In this document: one piece after another, positions 4,585 to 57,564 of the stretch | Layout of the letters: every line of letters begins with the position of its first letter | Position numbering within the stretch: the stretch's first letter is position 1 | Source of the DNA: Escherichia phage bumzen | DNA: 64,000 bases | Strand: one strand, 5' to 3' | Sequence record: MN850635.1 | Position numbers and translations under genes: made by a program | Notes under the pieces: model-generated | Told to the model about the DNA's origin: nothing | Databases searched by the model: none | What the model saw: the letters and a program-made list of their open reading frames with translations, nothing else

Positions 4585-6939
4585 ATGGCAGATTACAAGT
4601 TGAGTGAATTAAACTCAATTGATACAATTCGTTCAGACGACCTCCTTCATATCAGGGTTAAAAAGAGACCTGAAATGCTGGGTGATGAAGACCGTCGAAT
4701 GACCTATCAAGACTTCTTAGCGTCTTTTAAACTAGAAAGATTTGTCCAGATTGCTGGTAGCACTATGACGGGTGACTTAGGAATTGTCAAGTTACTTTAT
4801 GGTGGTAAGGCAGTATTTGACCCTACAGGTTCTTCTGAGATTACTATGGGGGATGTTTTAAAGGCTTTTAAAATCAATGCAAATGGTCTTAAACTAACTA
4901 TTGCAGATGCTTCAAGGTCTGCAACTGTTTATCATACTCTTAATAAGCCAAGTCCTAATGAACTTGGGATGAGAACTAATGAAGAGAATGATGCAAGATA
5001 CTCAAGATTGGCTGCAAATAACACCTTTAGAGGTACTCAAAATATTCTATCTGATAATGAAACTATTATTGTTAAGAATATTACACAAGGAATGCCGCTG
5101 TATATTCGCGGTCAAGATGCAGATGGTACTAACAGGTGGTATCTAGGTAATGATAACAAAGGTACAGACAATCTTGTTTTAAAAAATGTTAAATCTGGTG
5201 CATATGTAGCTATTTTGGGTAGCTTAATCACTGTGAACAAATCTATCCAGATTACTGGTCAAGTTCAACCTTCTGATTGGTCTAACTTAGATACTAGATA
5301 CTTTACTCAGACAGCAGCTAATCAGAGATTTGCACAGCTAGTTGGTAATAACACCTTCAGGGGTATTAACAATTTTGTAGGAGAGTTCAATATCACCAGA
5401 GATAACGCTGTGCTAGTCGTTAAGAATGCCACTGCTGCAACTGGACTGTACTTGCTGGGGCAGAAGGCTGATGGGACAAACAAGTTCTACTTAGGGACTG
5501 ATGACTCTGATTCTGTAGTTAATCTACATAACTACATCACAAGCACAACCATCTCTTTGTCAAATGTGATTACCACTACTAAGACTGTGAAAATCACTGG
5601 ACAAGTTCAACCTTCAGATTGGACTAACATTGACTCTAGATACATCTCAGCAGGAACTTTGAGTAATCTTGCTAAGTTAAGTGATGTAAACACTTTTAGG
5701 ATTGCACAGATTATTAATCAGAATGGTTCATTGTTACAGCTAAAGAATACTACACAAGACAAAGAGCTATACTTTGCTGGTCATAATGCTGATGGTGTTA
5801 GAAGGTGGTACATTGGGAATGGGGAACCATCCAACCCAGAAAGATTTATTATCCATAACGACAGAACTGCAACTACGATTTATATGCAAGATGATTTCTT
5901 GCTGAATAAAACTGTTAAAATTACTGGTCAAGTTCAACCATCTGATTGGTCTAACTTAGATGCTAGATACTTCACTCAGGCAGCAGCTAATCAGAGATTT
6001 ATGTATGCAGGTTCTACAGGAGAAGCTACAGAGCAGAATGCAGATGGTGTGGCATGGAACGCTAAAACAGGCTTATATAATGTAACCTCAACAAATGCTG
6101 ATTACACAGCACTTGTGTTTCAAATGTATCAGGGGGTGACCTCTTCTACTGCCTGTGCGCAATTAAAGTTCCAGTATAAAAACGGTGGAATGTGGTACAG
6201 AACATCTGTAGCTAGTAAAGGTTTTGAAGCTAAGTGGTCTAAGGTTTACACAGAGGCTCAGAAACCAACCCCTTCAGAGCTTGGTGCATACACTAAAGCA
6301 GAAACTGACCAGAAGATTGCACAGGCAGTAAGTGACTCTACAGACCTTAATAAAATCTACCCAGTAGGTATTGTAACGTGGTTTAACAGTAATGTTAACC
6401 CTAATACAGCACTGCCTGGTCTAACTTGGACGTACCTTAACAATGGTGTTGGTAGAACTATCAGAATTGCAGCAGCAAACGGTTCAGATGTTGCTACAAC
6501 AGGTGGTTCAGACTCTGTGACGTTAGCTGTTGGTAACTTACCATCACACACTCACAGTTTTTCTGCTACCACTTCATCTTTTGACTACGGAACAAAAAAC
6601 ACTAACACGACTGGTGCTCACGCTCACTCTGTAAGTGGCTCTACTTCATCTGCTGGTAACCACAACCATTCCATTTCGTGGATTGGTCAGAACTCTAAAC
6701 ACTACTCTGGTGGTGGTGGTGGTAGTATTGGTGTAGGACCGGGTTACACCGATGCTAACGGTGCTCACACCCACTCTGTAAGTGGTACTGCCGCTTCTGC
6801 TGGTAACCATGCTCACAGTGTAGGTATCGGTGCTCACACCCATACAGTTAGTGGTAACACTGGTGGTACAGGTTCTGGTTCAGCATTTAGTGTTACTAAC
6901 CAGTTCTACAAGTTAATGGCTTGGGTAAGAACTGCTTAA
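4585..6939 (+). CDS. tail fiber protein (long paralog) with internal tandem repeats and His-x-His tip
   Basis: 784 aa; three ~110 aa repeats each ending [15 protein letters not shown]; C-terminal GAH.HSV repeats and shared C-terminal motif. Confidence 0.75.
4987..5980 (+). repeat. three in-frame tandem ~330 bp repeats inside long tail fiber gene
   Basis: Near-identical DNA segments at ~5255, ~5593 and ~5923 (attactggtcaagttcaacc.tc.gattgg.ctaac). Confidence 0.7.
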
Positions 6940-7622: not shown

Positions 7623-8522
7623 TTACTTACCTACTGACAGAGGTGCTTCAATCTTCCCTGCATGTTGGTAGTTGTTAATACCACCAATAAAATCACTTGC
7701 AGTAAGATGTTTCAGGTCACTCAGGGTGTTAAGCTGTACACCAATCTCAAAAGTAGGTGCATGGAACTCTTCATTGTTCATCAGTTTATAAACCTGCTTC
7801 ATATGGTTCTGATAAATCTGGGTATCCCCAAAGACACCTATCAAGTACCGTGGAGTGTATCCAGTCATCTTGCAAAGAACTTCTAAGATGAAGCCATAAG
7901 ACGCAATGTTAAATGGAAGCCCTAAAAAGGTGTCTACAGAACGTTGATACCATTGCAAGTCAACTTCACCTTCGTTAGTGATATAAATCTGAAACAGGAC
8001 ATGACAAGGTGCTAAAGCCATTGAGTTTGCTGCGATATCTGCTGCATTCCAAGCATTAACAAGCATGTATCGGTCTGTGATATCACCCTTCATCTTCGTT
8101 ACTAAGGTCTCTAGCTGGTCTACAACACAACCGTTATAACCTTCAAAGTTTCTCCACTGAACTCCATAGATTCTCCCACCTGCATCCTCTAACCAATCTT
8201 GTTCAGAAGAATAATTAGAGCTTAACCAACGTTTAAAATCATCTGACCAGATAGTCCAGCGTTCTCCGTCATTTTCATCCCAAGTACGGTAACGAAGTTC
8301 ACCCAGCTTATTCTCACCATTCAGGAACCATAAAGCCTCCCCAATAACTTGCCGTGTAAACACCTGTTTAGATGTTAAGAGCGGGAAACCAGTCCTCATA
8401 TCAAAACGAAACTGAGGTGGAGCAAAAGCAGAGATAACATCTCCAGTTCGTGTAGTACGCAGTTCACCAACGGATAAAACATGGTTCAGGATATTTTTGT
8501 AACTTGTATCTGCTTGTGACAT
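7623..8522 (-). CDS. thyA: thymidylate synthase
   Basis: 299 aa; motifs CHVLFQIY and QRSVDTFLGLPFNIASY. Confidence 0.9.
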   Translation of the reverse strand: MSQADTSYKNILNHVLSVGELRTTRTGDVISAFAPPQFRFDMRTGFPLLTSKQVFTRQVIGEALWFLNGENKLGELRYRTWDENDGERWTIWSDDFKRWLSSNYSSEQDWLEDAGGRIYGVQWRNFEGYNGCVVDQLETLVTKMKGDITDRYMLVNAWNAADIAANSMALAPCHVLFQIYITNEGEVDLQWYQRSVDTFLGLPFNIASYGFILEVLCKMTGYTPRYLIGVFGDTQIYQNHMKQVYKLMNNEEFHAPTFEIGVQLNTLSDLKHLTASDFIGGINNYQHAGKIEAPLSVGK

Positions 8523-8523
8523 A

Positions 8524-9069
8524 TCAAAAGTGTCCTTTTACTTGTGGAACATAAATTTCAAAAGTTGCTTTACCATCCTCTGATGGTTTTGACTGTACCT
8601 TTGTAAACACACGGTTATCATACAGCTTCTCAAAGAAGTTTTCAAAAGGTAAATGCACAGTGGCCTCTTCAGTAACTTTATGGAAAACAGTATGGAACAC
8701 CACACTAGCATACGGTAAAGCATTGACAAGGATACCTGCACCACCAATTACAAAGACATCTTCATCAATAGAGCTATCAAGATACTTCAAAAATGCTCCA
8801 AATGACTCTTTACTGGCTTTAGCATACATTACATCATCTTTGCCAAAGTCTATGCCTAAGTATGGTACAGAATTTGTTAAGATGAGGTTTGCACGTTCTG
8901 GTAAAGGTTTACTACCCAGAGTCTTAAAAGTCTCATTACCCATGACTACTAAGTTATTTTTAGTGAGCCTCTTAAACTCTTGCATGTCCTGTTTATGTCG
9001 AGGCCACGGCATACCAGTCGGTGTACCAAATTCACCGTTTTCACCACTTGCAAATATTAGCTTAATCAT
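8524..9069 (-). CDS. dihydrofolate reductase
   Basis: 181 aa; N-terminal MIKLIFA..G.PW pattern, VVMGNETF, PLPERANLILT; adjacent to thyA. Confidence 0.75.
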   Translation of the reverse strand: MIKLIFASGENGEFGTPTGMPWPRHKQDMQEFKRLTKNNLVVMGNETFKTLGSKPLPERANLILTNSVPYLGIDFGKDDVMYAKASKESFGAFLKYLDSSIDEDVFVIGGAGILVNALPYASVVFHTVFHKVTEEATVHLPFENFFEKLYDNRVFTKVQSKPSEDGKATFEIYVPQVKGHF

Positions 9070-9326
9070 TTTGTAAATCCTTTCTTAATGAACCAGTTAA
9101 TAACATTCTTCACAGCTTTATTGCTGTGATAGATTAAGTGTGGTGTAGGTTGGTATGAACCATAGGCCCAGAATGATAGATGCTCACCACAACCAACACA
9201 TGTCGTACTCTCTTCAGCTATATGACCATTAACAATCACATGAACTTCACCTTGCAAGTCTGTACATCCACAATGTGGGCATCGGATAGGTGTTCCATCA
9301 GACTCATAGCAGTGTTCAATTTTCAT
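9066..9326 (-). CDS. small zinc-ribbon protein
   Basis: 86 aa; CPHCGC ... CVGCGEH cysteine pairs. Confidence 0.4.
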   Translation of the reverse strand: MKIEHCYESDGTPIRCPHCGCTDLQGEVHVIVNGHIAEESTTCVGCGEHLSFWAYGSYQPTPHLIYHSNKAVKNVINWFIKKGFTK

Positions 9327-45001: not shown

Positions 45002-45030
45002 AGGCTGCTTCGGCGGCCTTTTTTATTTGT
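45002..45030 (+). terminator. rho-independent terminator with UUCG loop
   Basis: aaggctgc-ttcg-gcggcctt then ttttatttg. Confidence 0.7.
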
Positions 45031-45085: not shown

Positions 45086-45634
45086 ATGAAGAAATTGATT
45101 CTAGGTTTGTGCTTAATGTTTACAGCACACTTATCTTATGCAGTTGACTGCCCAGAGCTATCAATTAGCCAAAAAGTAAACATGTTAAAAGCTTACCAGT
45201 ATGGTGAGAATAACATGGGTAAAGGTTGGGGTATCACTCTAGCTGCTATAGCCTTACAAGAGTCAGAGTTAGGTCTGAAGGTAGAGAATAAAAAGACACA
45301 TGATTATGGTATCTTCCAGAATCACTTGAAGACTGTTGTAAAGCGTAACAAAATTAGTCCTAATGTGGCTAAAAAGAAACTCTTAAGAGACTTTGATTAT
45401 GCTGCGAAGGAAACTCACAAAGAGCTTGAGTTTTGGACAAAGGTGCATGGTCAGCCAAAGTCAAAGAAGACTTTACAAAAAGTTTTAGCATCATATAATG
45501 CTGGGTATTCGTACAAAATTCCTAAAGCTAAGAAATACTCTCAAGATGTCTATAACAATATGAAAGTCATCGCTCAATGTGAATTTGCAATAAACATTTC
45601 TAAGGTAAACCATGAAAAAATTAAAAAAGTCTGA
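45086..45634 (+). CDS. secreted lytic transglycosylase-like (SLT domain) protein
   Basis: Signal peptide MKKLILGLCLMFTAHLSYA; AIALQESELG...DYGIFQ resembles SLT catalytic-Glu motif. Confidence 0.4.
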   Translation: MKKLILGLCLMFTAHLSYAVDCPELSISQKVNMLKAYQYGENNMGKGWGITLAAIALQESELGLKVENKKTHDYGIFQNHLKTVVKRNKISPNVAKKKLLRDFDYAAKETHKELEFWTKVHGQPKSKKTLQKVLASYNAGYSYKIPKAKKYSQDVYNNMKVIAQCEFAINISKVNHEKIKKV

Positions 45635-48335: not shown

Positions 48336-49121
48336 ATGGGTATTGTAAAAATCATCAATGGGGATATCTTCTCCGCATTTGATAAAGGTAAGTTTGATAT
48401 TATTGGTCACGGTTGCAACTGTATGAATTTAATGGGTGCAGGTATCGCTGACAAGATTTCTAAACTTTACCCAAAAGCATATGAGACCGATACAGAAGTT
48501 TATCTGTATGCAGGTGGCATAGGCCACAAACCCTGTGAAAATTTACTAGGGAATTTCTCTGTAGCACGTTTAGAACAAGGCCGTATAGCTAACCTTTACA
48601 CACAACTTCATACTGGTAAAGATGCCCGATACAGTGCTTTAGAGTCATCTTTGAAGAAACTTAACATGTACTGTGAAGTCAATCAGTTGAAGAAAGTCGG
48701 GTTACCTATGATTGGCGCAGGTATCGGTGGACTAGACCCTCAAGCCGTCACAGTTATCATTAATCAGGTGATGAAGAGTGTAGATGTTTATCTGTATGTC
48801 TACGAAGGAGAGATGTACCACAAGTTACGCTCAGGTTGGAATAACTACTGTGAACCAGAATACTTTGCAGGTGTAGTAATGTTCACAGATGATACAGTTA
48901 CCCTCTTCAGACGAAGAAAAGGTAAGATACATCAAAGTAACCCTCCGGTTGAGAAGATGTCTCTAAGTAACGCTCTAGTTACCCACCTGTCAAAGAGCAA
49001 TCACAGAATTGCTGTAACATTTGGTAGTGATGCAGAAGCTTATATCTATGCAAGAACTGATGAGGATATCGAGGCAATCTTCTCTTCACCAGAAGTTACC
49101 TTCTTAGACGCAAAGAACTAA
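48336..49121 (+). CDS. macro-domain-like protein (ADP-ribose binding/hydrolase fold) with C-terminal extension
   Basis: NGDIFSAF...DIIGHGCNCMNLMGAGIA and LPMIGAGIGGLDPQAV resemble macro-domain motifs. Confidence 0.4.
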   Translation: MGIVKIINGDIFSAFDKGKFDIIGHGCNCMNLMGAGIADKISKLYPKAYETDTEVYLYAGGIGHKPCENLLGNFSVARLEQGRIANLYTQLHTGKDARYSALESSLKKLNMYCEVNQLKKVGLPMIGAGIGGLDPQAVTVIINQVMKSVDVYLYVYEGEMYHKLRSGWNNYCEPEYFAGVVMFTDDTVTLFRRRKGKIHQSNPPVEKMSLSNALVTHLSKSNHRIAVTFGSDAEAYIYARTDEDIEAIFSSPEVTFLDAKN

Positions 49122-49189
49122 GAAACTCTGTAGTATATTCACAATAGCCTAAGCCTTTCTTATCTGGTAAATTTTTCAGGTAAGGAGGG

Positions 49190-49375
49190 CTTTTTCATTT
49201 TAGAATTGTGCAGGTAGAGTTCTGTAGAGAAATCTGTAGAGAGAATTTTGAACTCCAAAGGGAAAATTCATTTTCAAACTGTGCAGGTAATCTCCAAAGA
49301 GCTTTTTCATTTTCAAAACGTGCAGACCCCGCTCAGGTCGGGCAAGAAAAATCATTTTAGATTTGTGCAGGTAGG
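49190..49375 (+). repeat. four direct repeats of a ~22 bp motif upstream of the early-gene array
   Basis: cattttagaattgtgcaggta / cattttcaaactgtgcaggta / cattttcaaaacgtgcagacc / cattttagatttgtgcaggta, then C-rich tract 49393-49428. Confidence 0.6.
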
Positions 49376-49571
49376 TTTTTATAGAGAGCCAGACCAACCC
49401 CTCTCCCCCTCTTACTCCCCCTCTCCCCAAAAGTCAAGAGAAAAATTTGTAGCGGATTGAAAAATAATTCTTGATTTGTGTTCTGTTTTGTGGTAGTCGT
49501 GTGCGCCCGTTTCATTACAGTTTTGCCAAAAATATTTTTAAAATTTTTTCTTGACTCTTTGAACGTGGTTA

Positions 49572-49600
49572 TCTAGTATTTGCATCAACGGGGAGGGAAT
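49572..49600 (+). promoter_or_regulatory. strong sigma70-like promoter at head of small-gene array
   Basis: TTGACT - 17 bp - TAGTAT with AT-rich UP-like region upstream; then hairpin leader and RBS. Confidence 0.65.
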
Positions 49601-49642
49601 GACCTTCCCCACTAAATAAAGTCCTAAACTGGAGATTCAAAA

Positions 49643-50023
49643 ATGGCATATCGCGCACCTAAATTCATCAATAAAGACAACTTTCGCAACGCACTGGAGA
49701 AGTCACTTGATGAAAATTTTAAAGGTAACATTATCGTTGTTCACGCATTCAATTTTAAGTATGATGTAAACGGGAATAGAATCAACCATTACACGGCAAC
49801 CATGTTAGATGGTACACTATCAAGTGAAAAAGCCGTACTGAATGCACTAGCAGGACGCGGAAAAGTATTAGTAAGATGCGATAAGCGACGTTATCAGGGT
49901 GGCGCATATGGTTATGATGATGCTGTTTATCATCTTGAAAATATGGGCTATAAAGTAGAAAAAGCTGGGGTATCGCAAATCATCGGGAGCGATGGTTATG
50001 TAACAATCTTCAAAATTAACTGA
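49643..50023 (+). CDS. hypothetical early protein
   Basis: 126 aa; own promoter cassette and conserved leader/RBS. Confidence 0.5.
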   Translation: MAYRAPKFINKDNFRNALEKSLDENFKGNIIVVHAFNFKYDVNGNRINHYTATMLDGTLSSEKAVLNALAGRGKVLVRCDKRRYQGGAYGYDDAVYHLENMGYKVEKAGVSQIIGSDGYVTIFKIN

Positions 50024-50032
50024 TAAAGTACT

Positions 50033-50061
50033 TTACAAGGGGCTTATAGTTCGATAGAGTA
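50033..50061 (+). promoter_or_regulatory. family-A promoter cassette
   Basis: TTTACA - 17 bp - TAGAGT; spacer and -10 lie within palindrome ggggctta...taagcccc; conserved ~60 nt leader. Confidence 0.55.
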
Positions 50062-50113
50062 AGCCCCAGATAAAGAGCTTTACCACTCAATCCTAAATTG
50101 GAGAATCTGAAAA

Positions 50114-50407
50114 ATGGCTATTATCAAAAACGTTGTAATTACTGCAAAAACTCGTGATGACGCTCGCGTTATGGCTAAAAAGTTATGCGGGAAAGTTGTT
50201 GACAATGGGAAAAAATCTGCTGTAAGGTGGGGCGTGAAGGTTGATAAACAGTTGAAGTTAAAAAATTCACCGATAAACCTTTTTACATGTGTAAACACTA
50301 TCGGGAAGACAAATGTATACACGAAAAAGGCATACATTAGACGCGTAGCATTAACATCCCCCATTCGTACAATGAGAAGTTATGCAAAGCTGAAAATTAA
50401 CAAATAA
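50114..50407 (+). CDS. hypothetical early protein
   Basis: 97 aa; conserved leader; N-terminus MAII. Confidence 0.5.
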   Translation: MAIIKNVVITAKTRDDARVMAKKLCGKVVDNGKKSAVRWGVKVDKQLKLKNSPINLFTCVNTIGKTNVYTKKAYIRRVALTSPIRTMRSYAKLKINK

Positions 50408-50412
50408 AGTAC

Positions 50413-50441
50413 TTTACAGGGGGCTTAAAAGTTGATATCTT
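50413..50441 (+). promoter_or_regulatory. family-A promoter cassette
   Basis: TTTACA - 17 bp - TATCTT with palindrome gggggcttaa...taagcccc. Confidence 0.5.
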
Positions 50442-50494
50442 AAGCCCCAGATAAAGAGCTTTACCACTTAATCCTTAAACTAGGAGATTCAAAA

Positions 50495-51007
50495 ATGAAA
50501 ACTGTAGACGCTACCTTTGAAGTTGTAAAAGAAAAATTCACCATTATTTACGAAGCTGTCAATTGTTATGAAGCAAGCCATAACCTTGATAATTGGAAGT
50601 TTACAGATGACCATCAAGGCGGCGTGACTATTAAAAACCCCAATTGTCAGCGTAATGATTTTAAATATGCAATCCCTTTAAATTATAGCCTTAAACAGCT
50701 TTCTAGTGACTATGCAAAACAAGGCCGGGAAAATCCATCAAAAGAGGCTTACGCAAGCTTACAGAAAGAACTAGAAAGAGATTTAGAGGCTTCAGAGTAC
50801 AACCTTGCCGCGAAAGTTGTGGATGCAAACGGTAACACGGTTTTAGAAAGTTTTTATCTTGGTTATGCTTTCGATTGGTGTTATCGTGACGGCGATGATT
50901 TAGAGGATAGACTAAAAGAAGAGGTGAACAACGCAGACGCAGAATCTGAAGTATTAGAACGTTTGGAATCATTGAAAGACTCAGTGATGAATATCTTTAA
51001 GAACTAA
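50495..51007 (+). CDS. hypothetical early protein
   Basis: 170 aa. Confidence 0.5.
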   Translation: MKTVDATFEVVKEKFTIIYEAVNCYEASHNLDNWKFTDDHQGGVTIKNPNCQRNDFKYAIPLNYSLKQLSSDYAKQGRENPSKEAYASLQKELERDLEASEYNLAAKVVDANGNTVLESFYLGYAFDWCYRDGDDLEDRLKEEVNNADAESEVLERLESLKDSVMNIFKN

Positions 51008-51016
51008 ATAGATTTC

Positions 51017-51045
51017 TTTACACGGGGTTATCAAGCTGGTAGGAT
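51017..51045 (+). promoter_or_regulatory. family-A promoter cassette
   Basis: TTTACA - 17 bp - TAGGAT with palindrome cggggtta...atagcccc. Confidence 0.5.
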
Positions 51046-51099
51046 AGCCCCAGATAAAGAGATTTATCAAATAAAGCCCTTAAACTAGGAGATTCTAAA

Positions 51100-51396
51100 A
51101 TGAAATTATCAAATCAAGTGCGTGAAAATTTGAGCAAATTACTCAACAAAATTGATTTCATTGAAACATCAAGGAATAGTCATGATGTTATGGAATGGTT
51201 ACACGGCAAAATAAAAGGTCGTCGTGTAGTGATTTGCTTATGGAATAGCTGCAGGGAGTATAAAAAACCTGTATTGCAAGTCAATATTTATGATGACACC
51301 TTTAAAAGTCCTGTAAAGTCTAAAAGCGATTTATTAGAATCCTATGAGATAACTGTAAATGGCAAAGTATCACGTAAAGAGGAATCGCCATGCTGA
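51100..51396 (+). CDS. hypothetical early protein
   Basis: 98 aa. Confidence 0.5.
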   Translation: MKLSNQVRENLSKLLNKIDFIETSRNSHDVMEWLHGKIKGRRVVICLWNSCREYKKPVLQVNIYDDTFKSPVKSKSDLLESYEITVNGKVSRKEESPC

Positions 51397-51722
51397 TGAT
51401 TGGTATCACTGCAACCATTGCCATTTTCGCGCTATATAAGGCATATAAAGCCTATAATCTAGCAAATAAGGCAATCACACAACAGGTTAGCAATAACCTT
51501 GTAGGGAGCTTTCTAGAGCGTTTAAATGATGAGCAAATAAAGCGGCTAGAGATGAGCTTCAGATACAAAGCGAAAACCTATCAGATAAGTGACATCTTCA
51601 AAGATGATTTTCAGTTAGTTGATGATTATAATTCTCTGATAAATGCTTTAAATGTCAGTGACTTAAAAGACTACTACGCTGTAATTGTTCAAGAATTGAG
51701 CAAACGAAAAAATTCCTCTTGA
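51390..51722 (+). CDS. hypothetical early membrane protein
   Basis: 110 aa; N-terminal hydrophobic segment; no own cassette (co-transcribed). Confidence 0.45.
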   Translation: MLMIGITATIAIFALYKAYKAYNLANKAITQQVSNNLVGSFLERLNDEQIKRLEMSFRYKAKTYQISDIFKDDFQLVDDYNSLINALNVSDLKDYYAVIVQELSKRKNSS

Positions 51723-51747
51723 TTTTGGTTTTTAAAACAAGTAAATT
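51719..51747 (+). promoter_or_regulatory. family-B promoter cassette
   Basis: TTGATT - 17 bp - TAAATT, then leader hairpin gggaggtaataacctcccc and conserved RBS. Confidence 0.5.
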
Positions 51748-51809
51748 ACTAATCAACGGGAGGTAATAACCTCCCCACTAAGTAAAGTCCTTAAACTAGG
51801 AGATTCAAA

Positions 51810-52082
51810 ATGTACACTACTAACAACGGTCGCACCTTAAACGTAACCATTCGTCACTATGTGAACGGTGTAATGCACTTCGAAGATTTACAAGCCGAAC
51901 AACATATCTTAGATTGGCAACTTGCAGGACTACAAAAAACTGCTACAGGATACGGGAAAAAGATTCCAACCAGTTGGAAAGTATACTACGAAGGCCGTTT
52001 GCGCAGAATTTATCAGGATGTGCAAAGCAATAGCGCATCGAGTTACATCATAGTAAAAGGTAAAAAGCTGCATTTAGTGTAA
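51810..52082 (+). CDS. hypothetical early protein
   Basis: 90 aa. Confidence 0.5.
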   Translation: MYTTNNGRTLNVTIRHYVNGVMHFEDLQAEQHILDWQLAGLQKTATGYGKKIPTSWKVYYEGRLRRIYQDVQSNSASSYIIVKGKKLHLV

Positions 52083-52087
52083 AGTAC

Positions 52088-52116
52088 TTTACAGGGGGCT
52101 TATAGTTCGATAAAGT
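52088..52116 (+). promoter_or_regulatory. family-A promoter cassette
   Basis: TTTACA - 17 bp - TAAAGT with palindrome. Confidence 0.55.
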
Positions 52117-52168
52117 AAGCCCCAGATAAAGAGCTTTACCACTAAATCCTAAATTGGAGAACTTAAAA

Positions 52169-52573
52169 ATGGCTATTAATAACCGTGAATTATCAATCTT
52201 AAAAGCACGTTTGACCGTTAACCGGATTAATGTTATCACGTCATCAGCGCCTGATGAGACATTGCACAACATTATCGGGAAGATTCAAAGCGTTATCTTA
52301 GACGTTGAAAACGTAAAAAAATCATTGGCTGACGTTGCATCAGGTATCACGCTAGACGGCGCACAATATGAAATGGCTGACATGTTAGGCAAATCAAAGA
52401 TAATGAATAAAGAGCTTGATTTAAAAATGTTTCGATTTGCTGTTAAAGTATGGCTATCCGTCGAGTATGACGCTAATTTTGCAATCGCTGATTTCTTTGC
52501 CACTTGGTTACAACGTAATTTGACAAATCACGATTTTCGTGATGTCTGTGATGCAATTTATGCAGAACTCTAA
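52169..52573 (+). CDS. hypothetical early protein
   Basis: Start placed at ATG 52169 matching the conserved leader-to-ATG spacing (track ORF starts at TTG 52154). Confidence 0.5.
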   Translation: MAINNRELSILKARLTVNRINVITSSAPDETLHNIIGKIQSVILDVENVKKSLADVASGITLDGAQYEMADMLGKSKIMNKELDLKMFRFAVKVWLSVEYDANFAIADFFATWLQRNLTNHDFRDVCDAIYAEL

Positions 52574-52581
52574 AAATTTTG

Positions 52582-52610
52582 TTGACACCGGTTTTTAGAT
52601 AGATTAAATT
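52582..52610 (+). promoter_or_regulatory. family-B promoter cassette
   Basis: TTGACA - 17 bp - TAAATT, then leader hairpin ggggagggaatgaccttcccc. Confidence 0.6.
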
Positions 52611-52673
52611 ACACATCAACGGGGAGGGAATGACCTTCCCCACTAAGTAAAGTCCTAAACTGGAGATTCTAAA

Positions 52674-52877
52674 ATGGCTATTATTAACGGTTTAAACATT
52701 GAAACTACACACATCAAAGATATCAAAGTTGGCGATATAGTCCTTTCCCACGGCGTAGAAAAAACTGTCACTACAAAGGATATCAAAGAGGATTCTTTCA
52801 TGGGTAGGACTCTCTTCGGTGATTCTTATTGCTTAGGGTATCTTGCAGTCTTAAAAGTTGTCAAAAATAACAAATAA
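52674..52877 (+). CDS. hypothetical early protein
   Basis: 67 aa; N-terminus MAII. Confidence 0.5.
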   Translation: MAIINGLNIETTHIKDIKVGDIVLSHGVEKTVTTKDIKEDSFMGRTLFGDSYCLGYLAVLKVVKNNK

Positions 52878-52882
52878 AGTAC

Positions 52883-52911
52883 TTTACAAGGGGCTTATAG
52901 TTCGATAAAGT
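52883..52911 (+). promoter_or_regulatory. family-A promoter cassette
   Basis: TTTACA - 17 bp - TAAAGT with palindrome; near-identical to cassette at 50033. Confidence 0.55.
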
Positions 52912-52964
52912 AAGCCCCAGATAAAGAGCTTTACCACTTAATCCTTAAACTAGGAGATTCAAAA

Positions 52965-53531
52965 ATGAAATGCTATCACGGCACTACTCTGAAAAACTTT
53001 GTAAACCTGCTTAAAGGTGGCGACAAGCCGGAAGGTATCTGGAACTGCTCTTACATGGATGATTGTTTTTACGTTTACCCGATGGATAAGATTATCAAGA
53101 CGGGATGCCTGGAAGATGAAGAAGTCTCTTACATCCGTGAACGCTGCATGCAAAACGCTTTAGAGTCGGGGCTTATTACGGCAGCTTTCCAAATGGAAAC
53201 GCAGGAAGTGATTGTAATTGAGATGGATATCCCAGAGGAAGAACTTGAGGACGATTATTCTTGTGACAACATGAGCGAAATCGCCAGCTTTACCGGTTAC
53301 TTTGATAAAGATTGGATTATCGGTATTCACTCAACGAAATTTAGTGCAATGTATGCGCCATTCTTTGTACCTGATACAACTAACCGCAATTTGGGCTATA
53401 TTGACGATGATTTGTTGAGTATTGCAAAAATTGTACAGAATAGCGGGGATACTTCTTCTGTGTTTTGTGACCTGCTGGATAAAATTACCGAGAATCTCAC
53501 AGAGCGCAATCTAAGCGACTTTTTAGACTAA
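52965..53531 (+). CDS. hypothetical early protein
   Basis: 188 aa, acidic. Confidence 0.5.
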   Translation: MKCYHGTTLKNFVNLLKGGDKPEGIWNCSYMDDCFYVYPMDKIIKTGCLEDEEVSYIRERCMQNALESGLITAAFQMETQEVIVIEMDIPEEELEDDYSCDNMSEIASFTGYFDKDWIIGIHSTKFSAMYAPFFVPDTTNRNLGYIDDDLLSIAKIVQNSGDTSSVFCDLLDKITENLTERNLSDFLD

Positions 53532-53594
53532 GTAGTACAAAGACACTAATTTCCAACTTAAGGCCTATACAGGGCCATTTAAGAGGCTTAAATC

Positions 53595-53828
53595 ATGCTT
53601 ACAACCGTTTATCTTATCCTTTCTATATGTAATGGTCATTCATGTGATTTTAAAGGGCTTGAGGAGTTTACAGGGAGTAAAGAAAATGCTATTCAAGTTT
53701 GCCAGATAGCAAGACAAGACTATCCCGCCAGTGATGATATTCAATGCTACTTTAAGACAGAAGATGAAGACGGCGTCTATTTTGACAGTGTCGATGGTCA
53801 ATATGAAATTATCATTGAAAAAGACTAG
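53595..53828 (+). CDS. hypothetical early protein
   Basis: 77 aa; N-terminal hydrophobic stretch. Confidence 0.45.
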   Translation: MLTTVYLILSICNGHSCDFKGLEEFTGSKENAIQVCQIARQDYPASDDIQCYFKTEDEDGVYFDSVDGQYEIIIEKD

Positions 53829-53854
53829 ACAAGCCTGATAAAAGTCTGTAAATT
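53826..53854 (+). promoter_or_regulatory. family-B promoter cassette
   Basis: TAGACA - 17 bp - TAAATT, then leader hairpin ggggagggaatgaccttcccc. Confidence 0.5.
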
Positions 53855-53919
53855 GTCAATCAACGGGGAGGGAATGACCTTCCCCACTAAATAAAGTCCT
53901 TAAACTAGGAGATTCTAAA

Positions 53920-54261
53920 ATGGCTTATGTAACTGTAATTACCGATAAAGAAGATTCATCTTGGTCAACTCAAGTAAGTGATAAGATGTCACCTATGCAG
54001 TGCCTAAAATACTTTGAGCAGTGGAACAAAGGCGAGGATGTCAGCCCCTTTCAAGTGATGCAGATTATTCATGTAGACAATGAAGGGAAGAAAACGACTC
54101 TGAACAGTGAGTACTATGCGAGCCGCTTCGAAACGAGAAGTAAAACAATGAAGCTTCTACGTGAATCCGGTTATTCTCATATTGCCGCGCTAATCTGGGA
54201 TGACCTGCTAAAAAACCAACGTATCAGCTACGTAAAACCTGAAAAAATATTCATCAGTTAA
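53920..54261 (+). CDS. hypothetical early protein
   Basis: 113 aa. Confidence 0.5.
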   Translation: MAYVTVITDKEDSSWSTQVSDKMSPMQCLKYFEQWNKGEDVSPFQVMQIIHVDNEGKKTTLNSEYYASRFETRSKTMKLLRESGYSHIAALIWDDLLKNQRISYVKPEKIFIS

Positions 54262-54390
54262 TCAATAACTTACAAAAAACTTTTTAAAAAGTATTGACAA
54301 TACCCCTTGACATTGGTAAATTTGTTCGAGGGGGTTTATCTAAAAGGGATTCACTTAAAAGATTCTTTATAGATAGACTTAAAAAATTGC

Positions 54391-54419
54391 TTGCAATCAG
54401 CTATCAAAACAAGTAAATT
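54391..54419 (+). promoter_or_regulatory. family-B promoter cassette
   Basis: TTGCAA - 17 bp - TAAATT, then leader hairpin ggggaggcaataacatcccc. Confidence 0.5.
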
Positions 54420-54481
54420 ACTAATCAACGGGGAGGCAATAACATCCCCACTAAATAAAATCCTAAACTGGAGATTCTAAA

Positions 54482-55012
54482 ATGAACAAATTTCAAGCTA
54501 TCAACCACATTCGTTCAAATAGTGTCATGTCTAAGCCTGTAAAAGACACATACGAATTTCGCTGCAATGGTGTACACTTTGCAACCATCACCAAATCAGA
54601 AAACGGAGCTTATTATGTACATCGTCGTAATGTTGCAACCGTTGTAGTCTCTCACTTTATGCAAGCTGTAGCGGAATTATTGCCGTTATTCTTAGAGATT
54701 TACTTAGATGAGTGTAAAAACGTTCGTAACCACGTTAAAAACCTTTTAAACGGCTATAAAATGGCTTATGAGCGTTCTATCCAGAATCTTAACAAGTTCT
54801 ATAAAGCCCCTGAAAACTCTGTTGCTTCAGCCTATGGCGTAGGCGGTTGGACTGTTAGTCTCTTCGAAGTGGAAGAAATCGAGCTTTACGACCATCGACC
54901 TAGCGGTTACTCTAAGACACTGGGAGAAGGTTTATCTTTCAATATCAAGAACTTAGAAAAAACTTTAAAAGATATTGAAAAAGATATTGACGAAACAATC
55001 AAAAGTCTGTAA
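54482..55012 (+). CDS. hypothetical early protein
   Basis: 176 aa. Confidence 0.5.
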   Translation: MNKFQAINHIRSNSVMSKPVKDTYEFRCNGVHFATITKSENGAYYVHRRNVATVVVSHFMQAVAELLPLFLEIYLDECKNVRNHVKNLLNGYKMAYERSIQNLNKFYKAPENSVASAYGVGGWTVSLFEVEEIELYDHRPSGYSKTLGEGLSFNIKNLEKTLKDIEKDIDETIKSL

Positions 55013-55015
55013 ATT
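54987..55015 (+). promoter_or_regulatory. family-B promoter cassette (overlaps 3' end of previous gene)
   Basis: TTGACG - 17 bp - TAAATT; -10 contains stop codon of 54482-55012. Confidence 0.55.
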
Positions 55016-55091
55016 GTCAATCAACGGGGAGGGAATGACCTTCCCCGCTAAACAAAACCCTTAATCAACTTCCTAAACTGGAGATTCTAAA

Positions 55092-55340
55092 ATGGCTACT
55101 ATCCGCGCAACTGTTAACGAATTTGGCTTCTACTCTCTGGACGTTAAATTTGACCTTGTAGGTACTGATAACGCCTTTGAAATGGTGAAAGGCCTTATCA
55201 GCCAGACCATCAGTGACTACAACCCCTCTGATGAATTCTGGAAAGAAACAAAAGAGGAAGTTCTTAAAGATGGTTACACTTTTCACTATTGGGGAGAAAA
55301 AATCGTCTCCCTGTACTACAACAAACAAGGTTGCAACTAA
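55092..55340 (+). CDS. hypothetical early protein
   Basis: 82 aa; last gene of array. Confidence 0.5.
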   Translation: MATIRATVNEFGFYSLDVKFDLVGTDNAFEMVKGLISQTISDYNPSDEFWKETKEEVLKDGYTFHYWGEKIVSLYYNKQGCN

Positions 55341-55392
55341 TCGACGCAGCGGGGCTAAATAGCCCAGATACCTTTATACAGCCCCTTAAATG

Positions 55393-55420
55393 GGGCTTTT
55401 TGCATCCTATCGAATCCTTA
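55393..55420 (+). terminator. rho-independent terminator ending the plus-strand array
   Basis: cagcccc-ttaaat-ggggct then ttttt. Confidence 0.6.
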
Positions 55421-56971
55421 TACAATCCCTTTCCCTTTCCTTTCTAGAATCTTATCAGACCTTAAAAAGCAATAACTTTACAGCCTTTTACTAAGTCAAT
55501 TAATTGGCCTTATTAATAAGCCCTTAAACATAAGCCAATAACCCCAGAAAGGGGGCAACCCATTTAAACGCCATATAAAGCCCTATAACGGCCTTTTTAA
55601 CCTAACTTAAGGGATTGCATTACCTCACCCTTAAAAGCCCTTTATAAAGCTTCACAGAGCCTTAAAAGAATCTTATAAGGGTGTAAGCTTTATTATCTCG
55701 TTAGCTATCTTGTGAACTACTAAACAACCCCCTTGATAGTAACTGAAAAGTATGTTATAGGGGCTTTAAAGTTACTTTGAAGTAGCTTAAGAGTTACGTA
55801 AATGCTAGCCCCCTTAACATTTTCTTAACAATTTCTTAACAATCCCTACATAGTTATGCTTGTTAGAGACTTGTTAGCCCCTTGTTAAATCTCTGTTAAG
55901 ACCACGTAAAAGCCTTGTAAGAACCTTTGGCATAGCCTTAAAAGCCCCTGAAAAGCCCTATAAAGAGCTATCCATACAGTTGAGGGGTAAATACTAGGAA
56001 GAGACTTAAAAGGGCTTATAAGGGGCTATAGAGAGCTTTTAAGAGGTATGTTTAGAGATTCACTAAGAGGGAAAGGGAACGATAAGAAAAGAGATAGTGA
56101 CCATGTTAATAGCTTGTTAAAAAGATTAAACACTTGTTAGAGACTTGTTAATTATCTTAACAAAATAACTCTTAACATTTAACTACTTAGCTCTTGTTAG
56201 TCATCTGTTAAGATTCTGTAAAGACTATTCAGCACTTGTTAGAAAACTGTTACATCCTTGTTAGTTCTGTTAAGAATCTGTTAAGACCTTTGAAGAGTTG
56301 TTAAGAAGATGTAAGGACTGTTAAGAGATTGTTAAGGATATTTTAAAATTTTGCAAAGTACTTGTAAGGGAGCTGTTAAGGGCTACCAAGCAGATATACA
56401 TCCTAGACAGATATTTTTCAGTTCCTTCAAAGACCCTAAAAAATGACTTGATAGTCCTATTTTATAAAAATTTTAAAATTCTGAATAATTACCTATACAG
56501 TCTTTTAAAAATACAGGTAGAAACAGGCTTACAAGATACCTTGTTAGTACCGTGTTAGACCTTGTGAGGTAAGGTCTGTAAAGATATTCCTGTTAAGTTT
56601 GTTAAAACAGTCTATATAGAGGCTTAGTATTACCTAGTGAACACCTATAGAGAGTGTCATAGCTAACCTAGAGATTAAGAGGTGTATAGGAGCTTCTAAG
56701 AGGGTGTAGAGGGATGGTTAAGGTGATTGTATAGGTGGTTAAGAGGGCTTGTTAGAAGAGTGTTTAGAAGGCTATTTAGAAGGGCTATACAGAGGGCTAT
56801 TAAGACCACTAGATAGTTACTAAGATACTATATAGTACTATATAACTATATAGAGAGTAAGATTAAGAAGGTTGTTAAGAAGGATAGATATTTTATTCAC
56901 ATATGATGGTGACCCAGAGGTTGGGACAACCGATAAAATTTTATAAAAATTATAAATTTCGTAAATTTTAC
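55421..56971. repeat. 1.55 kb ORF-free region with dense short direct repeats
   Basis: More than 30 same-orientation copies of YTGTTARR (cttgttag, ctgttaag, ttgttaaga) at 55.85-56.9 kb plus gccttaaaagc / gccctataaag motifs at 55.5-56.05 kb; no ORF of 60 aa or more on either strand. Confidence 0.8.
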
Positions 56972-57002
56972 TCAATAAAAAGCCCCCAATTAAGGAGGCT
57001 CT
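56972..57002 (-). terminator. rho-independent terminator (minus strand)
   Basis: Minus strand agcctcc-ttaattg-ggggct then ttttt, just 3' of gene 57013-57564. Confidence 0.5.
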
Positions 57003-57012
57003 TAAGATATTT

Positions 57013-57564
57013 TTAAACCAATGTTTCCAGAACTGTTCTTAATGATGGCTTGGTTGTCTGATAAAAATGAGTGAATCCATTGTTGTTATCAAATACCTGC
57101 ATCATGATATCATCTCCCTTGATTGGGTAAACTCGGATATCATAGTGAAAACCATTAAAGACACAAGAACCACTACAGAATGCTCTAAAGTCATCCACTG
57201 AGATGTACTCTTCATGACCTGTGATTTTTATACAAACACCTTTACTCGGCCTCTTAGGGTTGATATCTTCCATCACAGACATACTCTGTCCACCAAGAGA
57301 TACCATAGTGACCACTTTACGGTTCTTCTGTTTAAAGTGCATCTTAACTTTCTGTAAAGTGTCTTCATAGAACGGATAAGACTTCTCTACAAAGATTCCT
57401 TCAAGTGGCTTTTTACCATTTACAGTCTCTCTATTATGCCGTACTGCAAAGATAAGTTGTCTTAGTATGTCGAGACTTTCTTCGGAGAGTGCTTCTCGAA
57501 TATCACTCCAGTCAAGGACTAGGTAGTTACCTTCAACATCTTTTACATCTTTAAAAACTTGCAT
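57013..57564 (-). CDS. hypothetical protein
   Basis: 183 aa ORF. Confidence 0.5.
   Translation of the reverse strand: MQVFKDVKDVEGNYLVLDWSDIREALSEESLDILRQLIFAVRHNRETVNGKKPLEGIFVEKSYPFYEDTLQKVKMHFKQKNRKVVTMVSLGGQSMSVMEDINPKRPSKGVCIKITGHEEYISVDDFRAFCSGSCVFNGFHYDIRVYPIKGDDIMMQVFDNNNGFTHFYQTTKPSLRTVLETLV

Follow-up and report, generated by a model that had tools for sequence, protein, structure and literature searches.

Probable PeSL-type promoter and stem-loop cassettes in an accessory-gene module of a Felix O1-like phage

Why should nearly every gene in a run of small genes of a Felix O1-type phage be preceded by a repeat of one of two kinds, and what might these repeats do? The window, which is the whole stretch of 64 kb of DNA that was analysed, is from a Felixounavirus genome (Felix O1-type phage). 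It contains 13 small genes and 11 cassettes bounded by two intrinsic terminators, which are 't13' (left) and 't23' (right) of Felix O1 (PMC3185647 Table 2); neither class of cassette was found in the rest of the 64 kb. The module keeps its synteny in four Ounavirinae genera, being flanked by a Macro-domain gene and a long ORF-free stretch. A first-pass annotation had described about 13 small genes and 11 cassettes in two families (six of class B and five of class A), and all of these elements lie where it had placed them (Table 1). The locus is probably a hyperplastic accessory-gene module of a Felix O1-like phage, made of promoter/stem-loop/RBS-leader cassettes of the PeSL (promoter-early stem-loop) type.

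Table 1. Features of the module and its boundaries, numbered from the first letter of the window.
Feature	Positions	Strand	Details
Left terminator	49151-49200	+	17-bp stem, then T run; ends upstream operon
B1	49540-49645	+	A/T-rich upstream; -35 TTGACT 49551-56; -10 TAGTAT 49574-79; CAAC 49586; hairpin 49590-49610, then shared SD leader; ATG 49643
g1	49643-50023	+	126 aa; phrog_4495; function unknown
A1	50024-50116	+	hairpin 50024-50082; -35 TTTACA 50032-37; -10 TAGAGT 50055-60; predicted +1 near 50068, then leader; ATG 50114
g2	50114-50407	+	97 aa; pI 10.7; phrog_5089
A2	50405-50497	+	hairpin 50405-50463; -35 50413-18; -10 TATCTT 50436-41; ATG 50495
g3	50495-51007	+	170 aa; acidic
A3	51009-51102	+	hairpin 51009-51066; -35 51017-22; -10 TAGGAT 51040-45; ATG 51100; variant arms GGGGTTAT/ATAGCCCC; outer and middle helices continuous (13 bp)
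g4	51100-51396	+	98 aa; bicistronic unit 51100-51722 with g5
g5	51390-51722	+	110 aa; hydrophobic segment at N terminus
B2	51709-51812	+	-35 TTGATT 51719-24; -10 TAAATT 51742-47; CAAC 51754; hairpin GGGAGGT/ACCTCCC 51758-51775; ATG 51810
g6	51810-52082	+	90 aa; phrog_3436
A4	52080-52171	+	hairpin 52080-52138; -35 52088-93; -10 TAAAGT 52111-16; ATG 52169
g7	52169-52573	+	134 aa; phrog_4327 matched end to end
B3	52571-52676	+	-35 TTGACA 52582-87; -10 TAAATT 52605-10; CAAC 52617; hairpin 52621-52641; ATG 52674
g8	52674-52877	+	67 aa; phrog_3623
A5	52875-52967	+	hairpin 52875-52933, its first three bases being the g8 stop codon; -35 52883-88; -10 TAAAGT 52906-11; ATG 52965
g9	52965-53531	+	188 aa; pI 4.2; predicted ADP-ribosyltransferase-like fold
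g10	53595-53828	+	77 aa; pI 4.1; no cassette
B4	53817-53922	+	-35 TAGACA 53826-31, inside g10 coding sequence; -10 TAAATT 53849-54; CAAC 53861; hairpin 53865-53885; ATG 53920
g11	53920-54261	+	113 aa; phrog_4318
Extra promoter-like site	54294-54322	+	TTGACA-17-TAAATT; TG before -10; no hairpin; in tandem, upstream of B5
B5	54380-54484	+	-35 TTGCAA 54391-96; -10 TAAATT 54414-19; CAAC 54426; weaker hairpin 54430-54449; ATG 54482
g12	54482-55012	+	176 aa; phrog_4725
B6	54983-55094	+	-35 TTGACG 54987-92, inside g12 coding sequence; -10 TAAATT 55010-15; CAAC 55022; hairpin 55026-55046; leader longer than others; ATG 55092
g13	55092-55340	+	82 aa; phrog_4559
Right terminator	55380-55403	+	

All 13 ORFs have Shine-Dalgarno sequences and 11 of them lie directly behind a cassette; the remaining two are g5, which overlaps g4, and g10, which follows g9 after a plain spacer of its own. 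An upstream start for g7 (TTG 52154) was considered and rejected in favour of the ATG. The initiation region that had been proposed as common to both families is marked at 11 of 11 cassette sites by CCT(T)AAAYT(A)GGAGA; in the form GGAGATTCWAAAATG, with one mismatch allowed, it occurs eight times, and every occurrence of either is within the module and on the + strand.

Class A has the layout TTTACA, 17-18 nt, TAnnnT. Its CTTTACA lies at 50031, 50412, 51016, 52087 and 52882, and the matches of a class-A covariance model to the 64 kb are these five copies only. In 17 genomes that together supply 56 distinct copies, TTTACA never changes, the spacer measures 17 nt in 48 copies and 18 nt in eight, and the -10 keeps its T, A and final T in 56 of 56, with positions 3-5 near random; the predicted +1 is the A of AGAUAAAG, 6-7 nt after the -10. 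Class B consists of TTGACN or TTGCAA, 17 nt, a TAAATT-like -10, 6 nt, CAAC and then a hairpin of variable stem sequence, and all 31 distinct copies have exactly 17 nt in the spacer and exactly 6 nt from the -10 to CAAC. Judged by these patterns, both classes carry host sigma-70-type promoter signatures, which hold across four Ounavirinae genera. Host sigma-70 RNA polymerase would be expected to start at each cassette, and initiation at every cassette would make each small gene or gene pair its own transcription unit. The earlier proposal of one promoter per cassette agrees with this conservation, and together the cassettes would give 11 transcription units for 13 genes. No mapped transcription start, 3' end or processing site was found for any Ounavirinae phage in the literature searched, so that promoter use and the predicted +1 are inferred. 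The extra site upstream of B5 is a twelfth promoter-like site, absent from the earlier description.

Timing is divided. In Felix O1, RT-PCR showed that module genes 16, 20, 21 and 22 were maximal 5 min after infection and that genes 14, 17, 19 and 23 peaked at 25 min (PMC3185647), so the label 'early', which had been given to the module as a whole, is true for only part of it, namely half of the module genes tested.

The exact 25-mer CAACGGGGAGGGAATGACCTTCCCC is present in four of the six class-B copies (0 expected from 100 shuffles), and the remaining two have variant stems. Across copies the stems differ (GGGGAGGG/CCUUCCCC, GGGGC/GCCCC, GGGC/GCCC and GGGA/UCCC) and the hairpin position is constant; 91% of copies fold at -7 kcal/mol or better, compared with 7.6% of random 32-mers. 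Given the predicted start, the class-B hairpin is located at about +4 of its transcript, as a 5'-terminal mRNA stem-loop. The mRNA from each class-B cassette would thereby carry, 3-4 nt from its predicted 5' end, a G/C-rich stem-loop whose most likely role is to guard the message from 5'-end-dependent decay. The suggestion that this hairpin is an RNA stability element fits a position that is kept while the stem sequence changes. Emory, Bouvet and Belasco reportedly found in 1992 that the ompA 5' UTR provides a stabilising 5'-terminal stem-loop in E. coli mRNA. Class B resembles it in having a stable hairpin a few nucleotides from the 5' end followed by an open ribosome-binding region, but the class-B 5' end is a predicted one.

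The class-A hairpin is of another kind: 59 nt long, it comprises three helices and encloses the whole promoter. The outer helix pairs TAAAG, which takes in the upstream stop codon, with CTTTA; the middle helix pairs the CTTTA of the -35 with TAAAG; and the upper helix pairs GGGGYTTA with TAAGCCCC, placing the TA of the -10 in the apical loop. The palindrome with 8-bp arms that had been noted earlier is thus part of a larger structure, since the dyad reaches far past those arms. RNAfold recovered the three-helix hairpin independently for all five window copies (dG -21.6 to -27.3 kcal/mol, z -3.7 to -5.1), whereas the leader from the predicted +1 has a dG of -3.6 and a z of 0. In the comparison set, 97.0-97.5% of helix cells are paired, compared with 29-62% when the partners are slid. 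Compensatory changes are found at upper pair 3 (G-C to U-A, nine copies), upper pairs 7 and 8 (UA/AU swap, 17 and 13 copies), outer pair 5 (G-C to U-A, 13 copies) and outer pair 1 (U-A to A-U, six copies), and the variants of the outer helix are combined with those of the upper helix in all four possible ways. The score for covariation is 0.12, compared with 0.05-0.06 in shuffles, and 0 of 500 shuffles reach it, with double changes at only 3-5 base pairs; because cassette copies are related by descent and duplication, the shuffle statistics overstate independence. The helices contain 46 G·U pairs versus three A·C pairs, most G·U cells coming from a single position. The same G·T tolerance is expected of a hairpin in single-stranded DNA of the + strand.

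The covariation shows that the class-A structure is under selection. In view of the compensatory changes and the strand-specific G·U pairs, the hairpin most likely forms in read-through RNA. Transcripts from the class-A promoter itself would begin on the 3' side of the hairpin and could not form it. Their leader is unstructured, and the hairpin would appear only in RNA entering from upstream. Its most likely role there would be to insulate adjacent cistrons, whether as an attenuator, as a 3'-end structure or as a processing site. Classical intrinsic termination is unlikely because the hairpin has no U-tract.

One alternative, on the whole unlikely, is that the class-A element is specifically an RNase III-type processing site laid over a promoter. 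The early mRNAs of T7 undergo cleavage at irregular hairpins that contain internal loops. Like the T7/T3 sites, the class-A hairpins are irregular, span about two helical turns, contain internal loops and stand exactly between consecutive early cistrons; they have 18 to about 22 bp, continuous as 13 + 9 bp in A3. Cleavage of read-through RNA within the 3x3 internal loop would leave a protective 3' hairpin on the upstream mRNA, as in T7/T3, and give the downstream mRNA almost the same 5' end as the primary transcript. No variation is seen in the 3' strands of the internal loops, and the predicted +1 coincides with the 3' side of the internal loop. Set against this, the helices are short and A/U-rich, the element has no match in Rfam, and every gene already has a promoter, which makes processing less needed. 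Transcription of the T7 early region relies on a few promoters at the genome end, and the T7 sites lack a promoter of their own, unlike the class-A element, where cleavage is putative.

Less probable still is the earlier interpretation of the dyad as a shutoff operator, on which a dimeric phage repressor would close the promoter. The dyad does overlap the spacer and -10, and no variation affects the middle helix or, in the internal loops, the 3' sides (AGA and AG), as sequence recognition could demand. The arms, however, vary by compensatory changes, and variants such as GGGGCTTA/TAAGCCCC and GGGGTTAT/ATAGCCCC coexist in the window. T·G occupies upper pair 5 in 33 of 56 copies, with A·C almost absent, and the complementarity reaches as far as helices 57 nt apart, which take in the stop codon and +15. 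In addition, the 13 module proteins contain no helix-turn-helix or other recognisable DNA-binding domain.

There is also little to recommend a function in DNA, in which a recombination or replication protein would target a + strand single-stranded hairpin or cruciform and the promoter-like boxes would be secondary. The PeSL authors raised this for GGGG...CCCC stems (PMC2839356), G·T is the least destabilising DNA mismatch, and the cassettes are where breakpoints concentrate. These breakpoints need no more than ordinary homologous recombination between repeats of roughly 100 nt, however, and the class-A -10, with its free middle and its fixed spacing of 17-18 nt from the unvarying TTTACA, follows the pattern that a promoter, not a hairpin, predicts. 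That the repeats, first reported simply as direct repeats (PMC3185647), are recent functionless duplications, similar through copying of whole intergenic regions, is scarcely credible and already contradicted by comparative data, as conservation is position-specific, the stems covary and both classes persist in genera with module proteins only 30-55% identical to their counterparts in the window (e.g. g4 and g9).

Among the encoded proteins, g9 is predicted to have an ADP-ribosyltransferase-like fold, with H5-G-T nearly invariant and Y36, Y38 and E86 invariant; like T4 Alt, ModA and ModB, it would be a phage protein of this fold in a module with early-type promoters. The g10 gene is behind g9 in every examined genome that has both. 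Homologues of g3 are present in all four genera, which is rare among module genes, and its confident structure model (pLDDT 90.6) gave no informative fold match. The SUSP1 homologues of module genes were all 'Not Fit' on knock-down and are individually dispensable. These homologues and the predicted g9 fold lend some support to the host-takeover or accessory role that had been suggested, but the anti-defence part of that suggestion is unsupported for every gene.

The module resembles the early promoter arrays of T4 and T5 in its many putative strong host-polymerase promoters, A/T-rich upstream and each placed before small non-essential early genes, but the T4 and T5 promoters do not sit within a common ~100-nt repeat that carries a conserved hairpin and leader. 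The nearest known counterpart is the PeSL cassette of T4-like phages, whose published definition (PMC2839356) is matched feature by feature. PeSL cassettes are described in phi1/RB49, PST/T4 and nt-1/KVP40, where they serve early gene switch-on and the shuffling of genes between phages (Arbiol et al. 2010, PMC2839356; Comeau et al. 2014, PMC4122927); no report of them in Ounavirinae was found in the literature searched. Common to both are an upstream stop codon in an A/T-rich stretch, a strong sigma-70-type -35/-10, a GGGG...CCCC stem-loop with G·T pairs between the -35 and -10, over the -10 or just past it, an SD and start codon at the 3' end, many copies packed among small ORFs of unknown function, and indel or replacement ends between relatives that fall in cassettes. 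The present cassettes differ in belonging to the Ounavirinae, with genomes of about 86 kb and direct terminal repeats, in forming just two sharply defined classes with one common leader, and in the covariation-supported three-helix stem-loop of class A. Sequence similarity to PeSLs is undetectable, BLAST matches being confined to Felix O1-like records, and promoter activity, terminator activity and mini-circles have been demonstrated for PeSLs, whereas the promoters of the present cassettes are predicted.

Shuffling is evident among the relatives of this phage. Against eight Felixounavirus genomes, 16 of 20 homology breakpoints (by our own inspection about 6 of 7 distinct events) fall within cassettes, whose share of the region is 17.5% (binomial p = 2e-9). 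The class of cassette in front of g1, g9 and g11 is A or B depending on the phage, g2 is duplicated in Michonne and g11 in Sf14, Michonne has one empty cassette, and gene order in the module differs in Kolesnikvirus. The cassettes, all of which have about 90-105 nt of conserved sequence in common, therefore also act as homologous-recombination joints, and the genome comparisons show that gene-plus-cassette units are gained, lost, duplicated and re-ordered among Ounavirinae via these joints.

A search with region 49400-55500 gave matches to 258 phage records (89-96% identity). Those closest among the matches listed (KEP2, Mushroom, dune and others) belong to Felixounavirus and the remainder are Felix O1-like records; all ORFs under the match in annotated relatives are labelled 'hypothetical protein'. 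From left to right, the locus comprises a Macro-domain 'phosphatase' gene, a terminator, a gene-free stretch of ∼0.4 kb, an array of 13 small + strand ORFs (g1-g13) with Shine-Dalgarno (SD) sequences, a second terminator and ∼1.6 kb without genes, followed by opposite-strand genes. Synteny of the module extends to four Ounavirinae genera (Felixounavirus, Mooglevirus, Suspvirus and Kolesnikvirus). The first-pass annotation had described two families of promoter cassettes ahead of nearly every small ORF, and the array was recovered in full at the same places: repeat finding gave six class B copies (B1-B6) and five class A copies (A1-A5), and all 11 were also found by promoter scan or pattern search. 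The proposed promoters are supported, in that each cassette has a promoter-like score and a sigma-70-type signature is kept in 56 class A and 31 class B distinct copies. The 25-mer CAACGGGGAGGGAATGACCTTCCCC occurs four times and the shared leader CCTAAACTGGAGATTCTAAAATG four times at ≤1 mismatch, with zero expected for each, and looser leader patterns hit all 11 cassette sites and no other place in 64 kb. Cassette density is 11 copies in 5.6 kb, compared with zero in the rest of the 64 kb window. Intergenic spacers measure 79-100 nt and are cassette throughout, except for two longer spacers before g1 and g12. The 13 genes make up 11 units because two of them have no cassette of their own: g5, which overlaps g4, and g10, which comes after g9.

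Features of the accessory-gene module and its flanks
Feature	Position	Strand	Basis or remark
Macro-domain 'phosphatase' gene	48336-49121		directly upstream of module
Intrinsic terminator t13 of Felix O1	about 49151-49192	+	terminator scan; left bracket of module
Four copies of TTTTTCATTTTnnAnnTGTGCAGGT	49185-49375		between t13 and first promoter
Thirteen small ORFs, g1-g13	49643-55340	+	SD sequences
g9	52965-53531	+	188 aa
Additional promoter-like site, TTGACA-17-TAAATT	54294-54322	+	promoter scan
Intrinsic terminator t23 of Felix O1	about 55380-55397	+	terminator scan; right bracket of module
Stretch without credible ORFs	55400-57010		densest in TGTTA(A/G) at 55800-56620

Class A is present in all four genera. 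A covariance model detected 86 + strand copies in 17 genomes (64-95 bits) and, in the window, the five known copies and no others. Among 56 distinct copies, CTTTACA shows no variation and is followed at a spacing of 17 nt (48 copies) or 18 nt (eight copies) by a TAnnnT hexamer, in which T1, A2 and T6 never vary and any of the four bases can stand at positions 3-5; [A/T]GATAAAG lies 6-7 nt further downstream. Judged by its sequence, this hexamer is the classic sigma-70 -10 pattern, and the fixed TA within an otherwise variable loop argues for genuine promoter function. The upstream stop codon in A1, A2, A4 and A5 is the TAA of TAAAG, 7 nt before CTTTACA.

The class A cassette has the layout TAAAG-nn-CTTTA-caN-GGGGYTTA-loop(12-14)-TAAGCCCC-aga-TAAAG-ag-CTTTA, which places the G-run/C-run stem-loop between the -35 and -10 elements and overlapping the latter. 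This upper helix is the 8-bp palindrome of the first-pass annotation, and the dyad extends beyond it: the -35 is paired to +4 to +8 in a middle helix, and the pentamer containing the stop codon to +11 to +15 in an outer helix. Unguided RNAfold predictions gave the three-helix fold for all five window copies (dG -21.6 to -27.3, z -3.7 to -5.1), as a hairpin of 18-22 bp interrupted by 3x3 and 2x2 loops; A3 has an uninterrupted run of 13 bp in its lower part. In a MAFFT alignment of 45 copies, 97.0% of cells are paired, compared with 30-59% with slid partners, and the covariation score is 0.124 versus 0.050 after shuffling (none of 500 shuffles as high); a covariance-model alignment of 76 distinct copies gave 97.5% paired and a covariation of 0.117 versus 0.057. 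Both alignments place the short-loop variant out of register at upper pairs 7 and 8, an error corrected by an anchor-based count, which gave 941 Watson-Crick, 46 G·U, three A·C and 18 other cells in 56 copies. T·G stands at upper pair 5 in 33 of these copies. Double changes, which are confined to few pairs in copies that are not independent, were found at upper pair 3 (G-C to U-A; nine Kolesnikvirus copies), upper pairs 7 and 8 (UA/AU exchanged; 17 and 13 copies), outer pair 5 (G-C to U-A; 13 copies) and outer pair 1 (U-A to A-U; six copies). All four combinations of outer and upper variants exist; thus, helix sides 57 nt apart stay matched while neighbouring helices re-assort. A further candidate pair outside the model, between position p-2 and the first base of AGA/TGA, was rejected, since its signal came from two orthologous Kolesnikvirus copies and reflects ancestry, which shows that such statistics can mislead. 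A search of 49000-57200 against Rfam gave no family matches.

These features fit a selected secondary structure of the + strand and not a protein half-site. With the predicted start (the A of AGAUAAAG) on the 3' side of the upper helix, the promoter's own transcript cannot form the hairpin; the RNA leader from this +1 is predicted to be unstructured (dG -3.6, z 0; RNAfold). The hairpin would therefore form solely in read-through RNA, with the leader made from the cassette's own promoter staying open. One hypothesis is that the read-through hairpin is an RNase III processing site of the T7 early type, and the geometry matches, with an irregular hairpin of ∼20 bp and an internal loop placed between cistrons. 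An extended version of this hypothesis, which we regard as improbable, would have one 59-nt class A sequence serve as a sigma-70 promoter in DNA and as an RNase III-type processing or attenuation site in read-through RNA, with the cut at the start nucleotide and with the cassettes exchanging gene units subfamily-wide, including a hitherto unrecognised early ADP-ribosyltransferase (g9) near the Macro-domain gene; if true, each downstream message would carry an identical leader by either route. Alternatively, the selected structure could be a hairpin of + strand DNA. The first-pass annotation had instead taken the upper palindrome for an operator, and a dimeric repressor at the class A dyad is not supported by the data: the half-sites vary and coexist as variants inside one genome, and they covary through compensatory changes with G·T wobble while A·C is almost absent. 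No DNA-binding domain was found in the module proteins either, although a regulator might be encoded elsewhere. A Rho-independent terminator is unlikely, as AGATAAAGAG and no U-tract follows the stem in all copies and the terminator scan returned two flanking terminators plus weak chance sites only.

Class B was traced with nhmmer profiles made from the window copies and is present in Felixounavirus, Mooglevirus and Suspvirus. The -35 of class B is preceded by AAAAATTTT-like runs. All 31 distinct copies contain a -35 of TTGACN or TTGCAA, then exactly 17 nt and a -10 (TAAATT, TAAAGT, TAGTAT or TAATAT), followed by exactly 6 nt, CAAC (or CAGAC) and a hairpin from the fifth nucleotide; CAAC begins 7 nt and the stem-loop 10 nt after the -10. 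In a larger genome set, the first paired base is nucleotide 5 counted from CAAC in 34 of 44 distinct copies, the mean dG is -11.7 kcal/mol, and 91% of copies reach -7 kcal/mol or better, compared with 7.6% of random 32-mers from the window. The stems themselves vary (GGGGAGGG/CCUUCCCC, GGGAGG/CCUCCC, GGGGC/GCCCC, GGGC/GCCC and GGGA/UCCC) and differ between genera even at the orthologous first cassette of the module. It is the position of the hairpin and not its sequence that is conserved, in keeping with the RNA element originally proposed for this class. Transcription usually starts 7-8 nt after the -10, which would put the predicted stem 3-4 nt from the 5' end, and hairpins that near the 5' end are known to shield E. 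coli mRNAs from 5'-end-dependent decay.

In the leaders, the SD usually has its own complement before it, ∼20 nt 5' of each cassette ATG (e.g. 52653-52667). Three genera have UCC(U) paired with (A)GGA across 6 nt, and the Kolesnikvirus forms are CCUU-aua-AAGG and CCUC-aaa-GAGG; this SD-masking hairpin is weak (-2 to -4 kcal/mol) and covaries with the SD type. A RegB-like shut-off, with cleavage by a nuclease of the T4 RegB type, was also considered, prompted by the shared GGAG leader and by an endoribonuclease label on a homologue of 45086-45634, which is called an endoribonuclease in one relative and a lysin in another. The idea was dropped because Pfam gave just a weak SLT (lysozyme-like, transglycosylase) match for 45086-45634, and the endoribonuclease label looks unfounded.

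Module gene content differs from phage to phage by presence and absence, and the boundaries of these differences mostly coincide with the cassettes. Comparison with eight further Felixounavirus genomes placed 16 of the 20 internal breakpoints in homology within cassettes, which make up 17.5% of the region (binomial p = 2e-9), and 19 inside or within 4 nt of one; by manual inspection of the breakpoint list, about six of seven distinct events are at cassettes. The cassette ahead of g1, g9 and g11 is of class A or class B depending on the phage, and gene order is altered in the Kolesnikvirus module. The Citrobacter phage Michonne has two copies of g2 and, at 5075-5255 of its locus, an 'empty' class A cassette with its ATG directly abutting the CTTTACA of the following one; Shigella phage Sf14 (locus 8278-9128) has a tandem duplication of g11 with a cassette before each copy. 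The empty cassette and the duplications in both phages are footprints of cassette-cassette recombination.

A comparable arrangement has been described in T4-like phages as the promoter-early stem-loop cassette (PeSL), which consists of a strong sigma-70 promoter preceded by an A/T-rich stretch that holds the upstream stop codon, a stem-loop (in many cases GGGG...CCCC with G-T pairing) situated between the -35 and -10, over the -10 or just past it, and a 3' end formed by the SD and start codon (PMC2839356, PMC4122927). PeSLs cluster in hyperplastic ORFan regions and mediate indels and mini-circles, and one PeSL stem-loop cut downstream lacZ expression as strongly as rrnB T1 (PMC2839356, PMC4122927). 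The window cassettes likewise have an A/T-rich stretch with an upstream stop codon before the -35, sigma-70 consensus-like -35/-10 elements at 17±1 nt and, filling the intergenic space, a 3' end formed by the SD and start codon of the next gene; many copies cluster among small genes without assigned function, and indel or replacement boundaries between related Felixounavirus phages fall in them. In contrast, the Felix O1-type cassettes have no sequence similarity to the T4-type elements, and BLAST with either cassette gave matches confined to Felix O1-like records of ∼81-90 kb. Since all sequence-level features of PeSLs are present without sequence relatedness, the likeness is one of architecture and not of descent. 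The best explanation of the sequence data is that these are PeSL-type promoter/stem-loop/leader cassettes through which accessory genes of the module would be expressed as well as shuffled, the class A promoter being enclosed in its hairpin. The design is already known from T4-like phages; its presence in Ounavirinae, the three-helix class A structure with its covariation support and the ADP-ribosyltransferase (ART)-like candidate g9 are new here.

Both elements were noted in Felix O1 as direct repeats only: class A as a 57-bp repeat separating gene pairs 15/16 and 19/20, class B as a 39-bp repeat separating pairs 18/19 and 20/21. That genome paper assigned promoters to other sequences and described temporal regulation as not known (PMC3185647). 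Its RT-PCR maxima are at 5 min for genes 16, 20, 21 and 22 and at 25 min for genes 14, 17, 19 and 23 (PMC3185647). The wV8 paper mentions neither promoters nor repeats, and our literature search found no transcription-start mapping or RNA-seq for Felix O1-like phages and no paper linking PeSLs with Felix O1.

All 13 module proteins belong to PHROGs of unknown function and none matches a Pfam family; no sequence relatives of g1, g3, g9 or g12 were found in the PDB. Eleven of the 13 genes (not g8 and g13) have homologues by the same PHROG in the Suspvirus SUSP1, within agp095-agp111, and all 17 genes of that interval were scored 'Not Fit' in a transcriptome-wide knock-down screen (PMC11879866 supplements). 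The SUSP1 homologues are individually dispensable in the laboratory host, as expected of accessory genes. The g3 model is confident (pLDDT 90.6) and has no informative structural neighbours. The g9 protein (pI 4.2) has homologues in Ounavirinae only, and H5-G-T, Y36/Y38 and E86 are invariant or almost so. With moderate confidence, g9 is predicted to have an ART-like fold with a conserved H-Y-E-like triad (model on a 15-sequence alignment; pLDDT 68, pTM 0.71). Such a fold would agree with a part in host takeover and with the presence of a Macro-domain gene directly upstream of the module, and the two predicted proteins could form a writer/eraser pair.

Two repeat-rich stretches flank the module. 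Directly after the right terminator, 1.6 kb without credible ORFs contains 22 + strand copies of TGTTA(A/G) in 820 nt, compared with an expectation of 0.8 based on the remaining window sequence; many copies are spaced at exactly 11 bp. Arrays of the same density (17-24 per 900 nt) lie past the module end in other Felixounavirus, Mooglevirus and Kolesnikvirus loci, and several GenBank records of Felixounavirus open in or near this stretch. Candidate roles for it are origin, packaging site and terminal-repeat region. As to a physical terminus at the module, the UAB_Phi87 record begins in the tRNA/terminase region and not there; a 608-bp repeat is reported for this phage, with its position not stated in the paper. 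On the left, TTTTTCATTTTnnAnnTGTGCAGGT, a motif of ∼30 nt, has four copies at the same place in all four genera; in the window, a looser fifth copy lies at 45024, after the rIIB terminator. Its reverse complement resembles the initiation region of the module, and the minus-strand ORF annotated across the copies in relatives is probably spurious.

Felix O1-like phages are widely used in Salmonella typing, biocontrol and therapy. Recognition of the cassettes as PeSL-type elements would provide a concrete, testable transcription map of their accessory module and mark where host-specific functions sit, including the candidate ADP-ribosyltransferase. For phage engineering, the cassettes would also offer compact natural parts (strong promoter, 5' hairpin and leader) as well as safe insertion points. 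More generally, gene shuffling by 'mobile regulatory cassettes', as known in T4-like phages, would then apply to an unrelated subfamily of myoviruses too.
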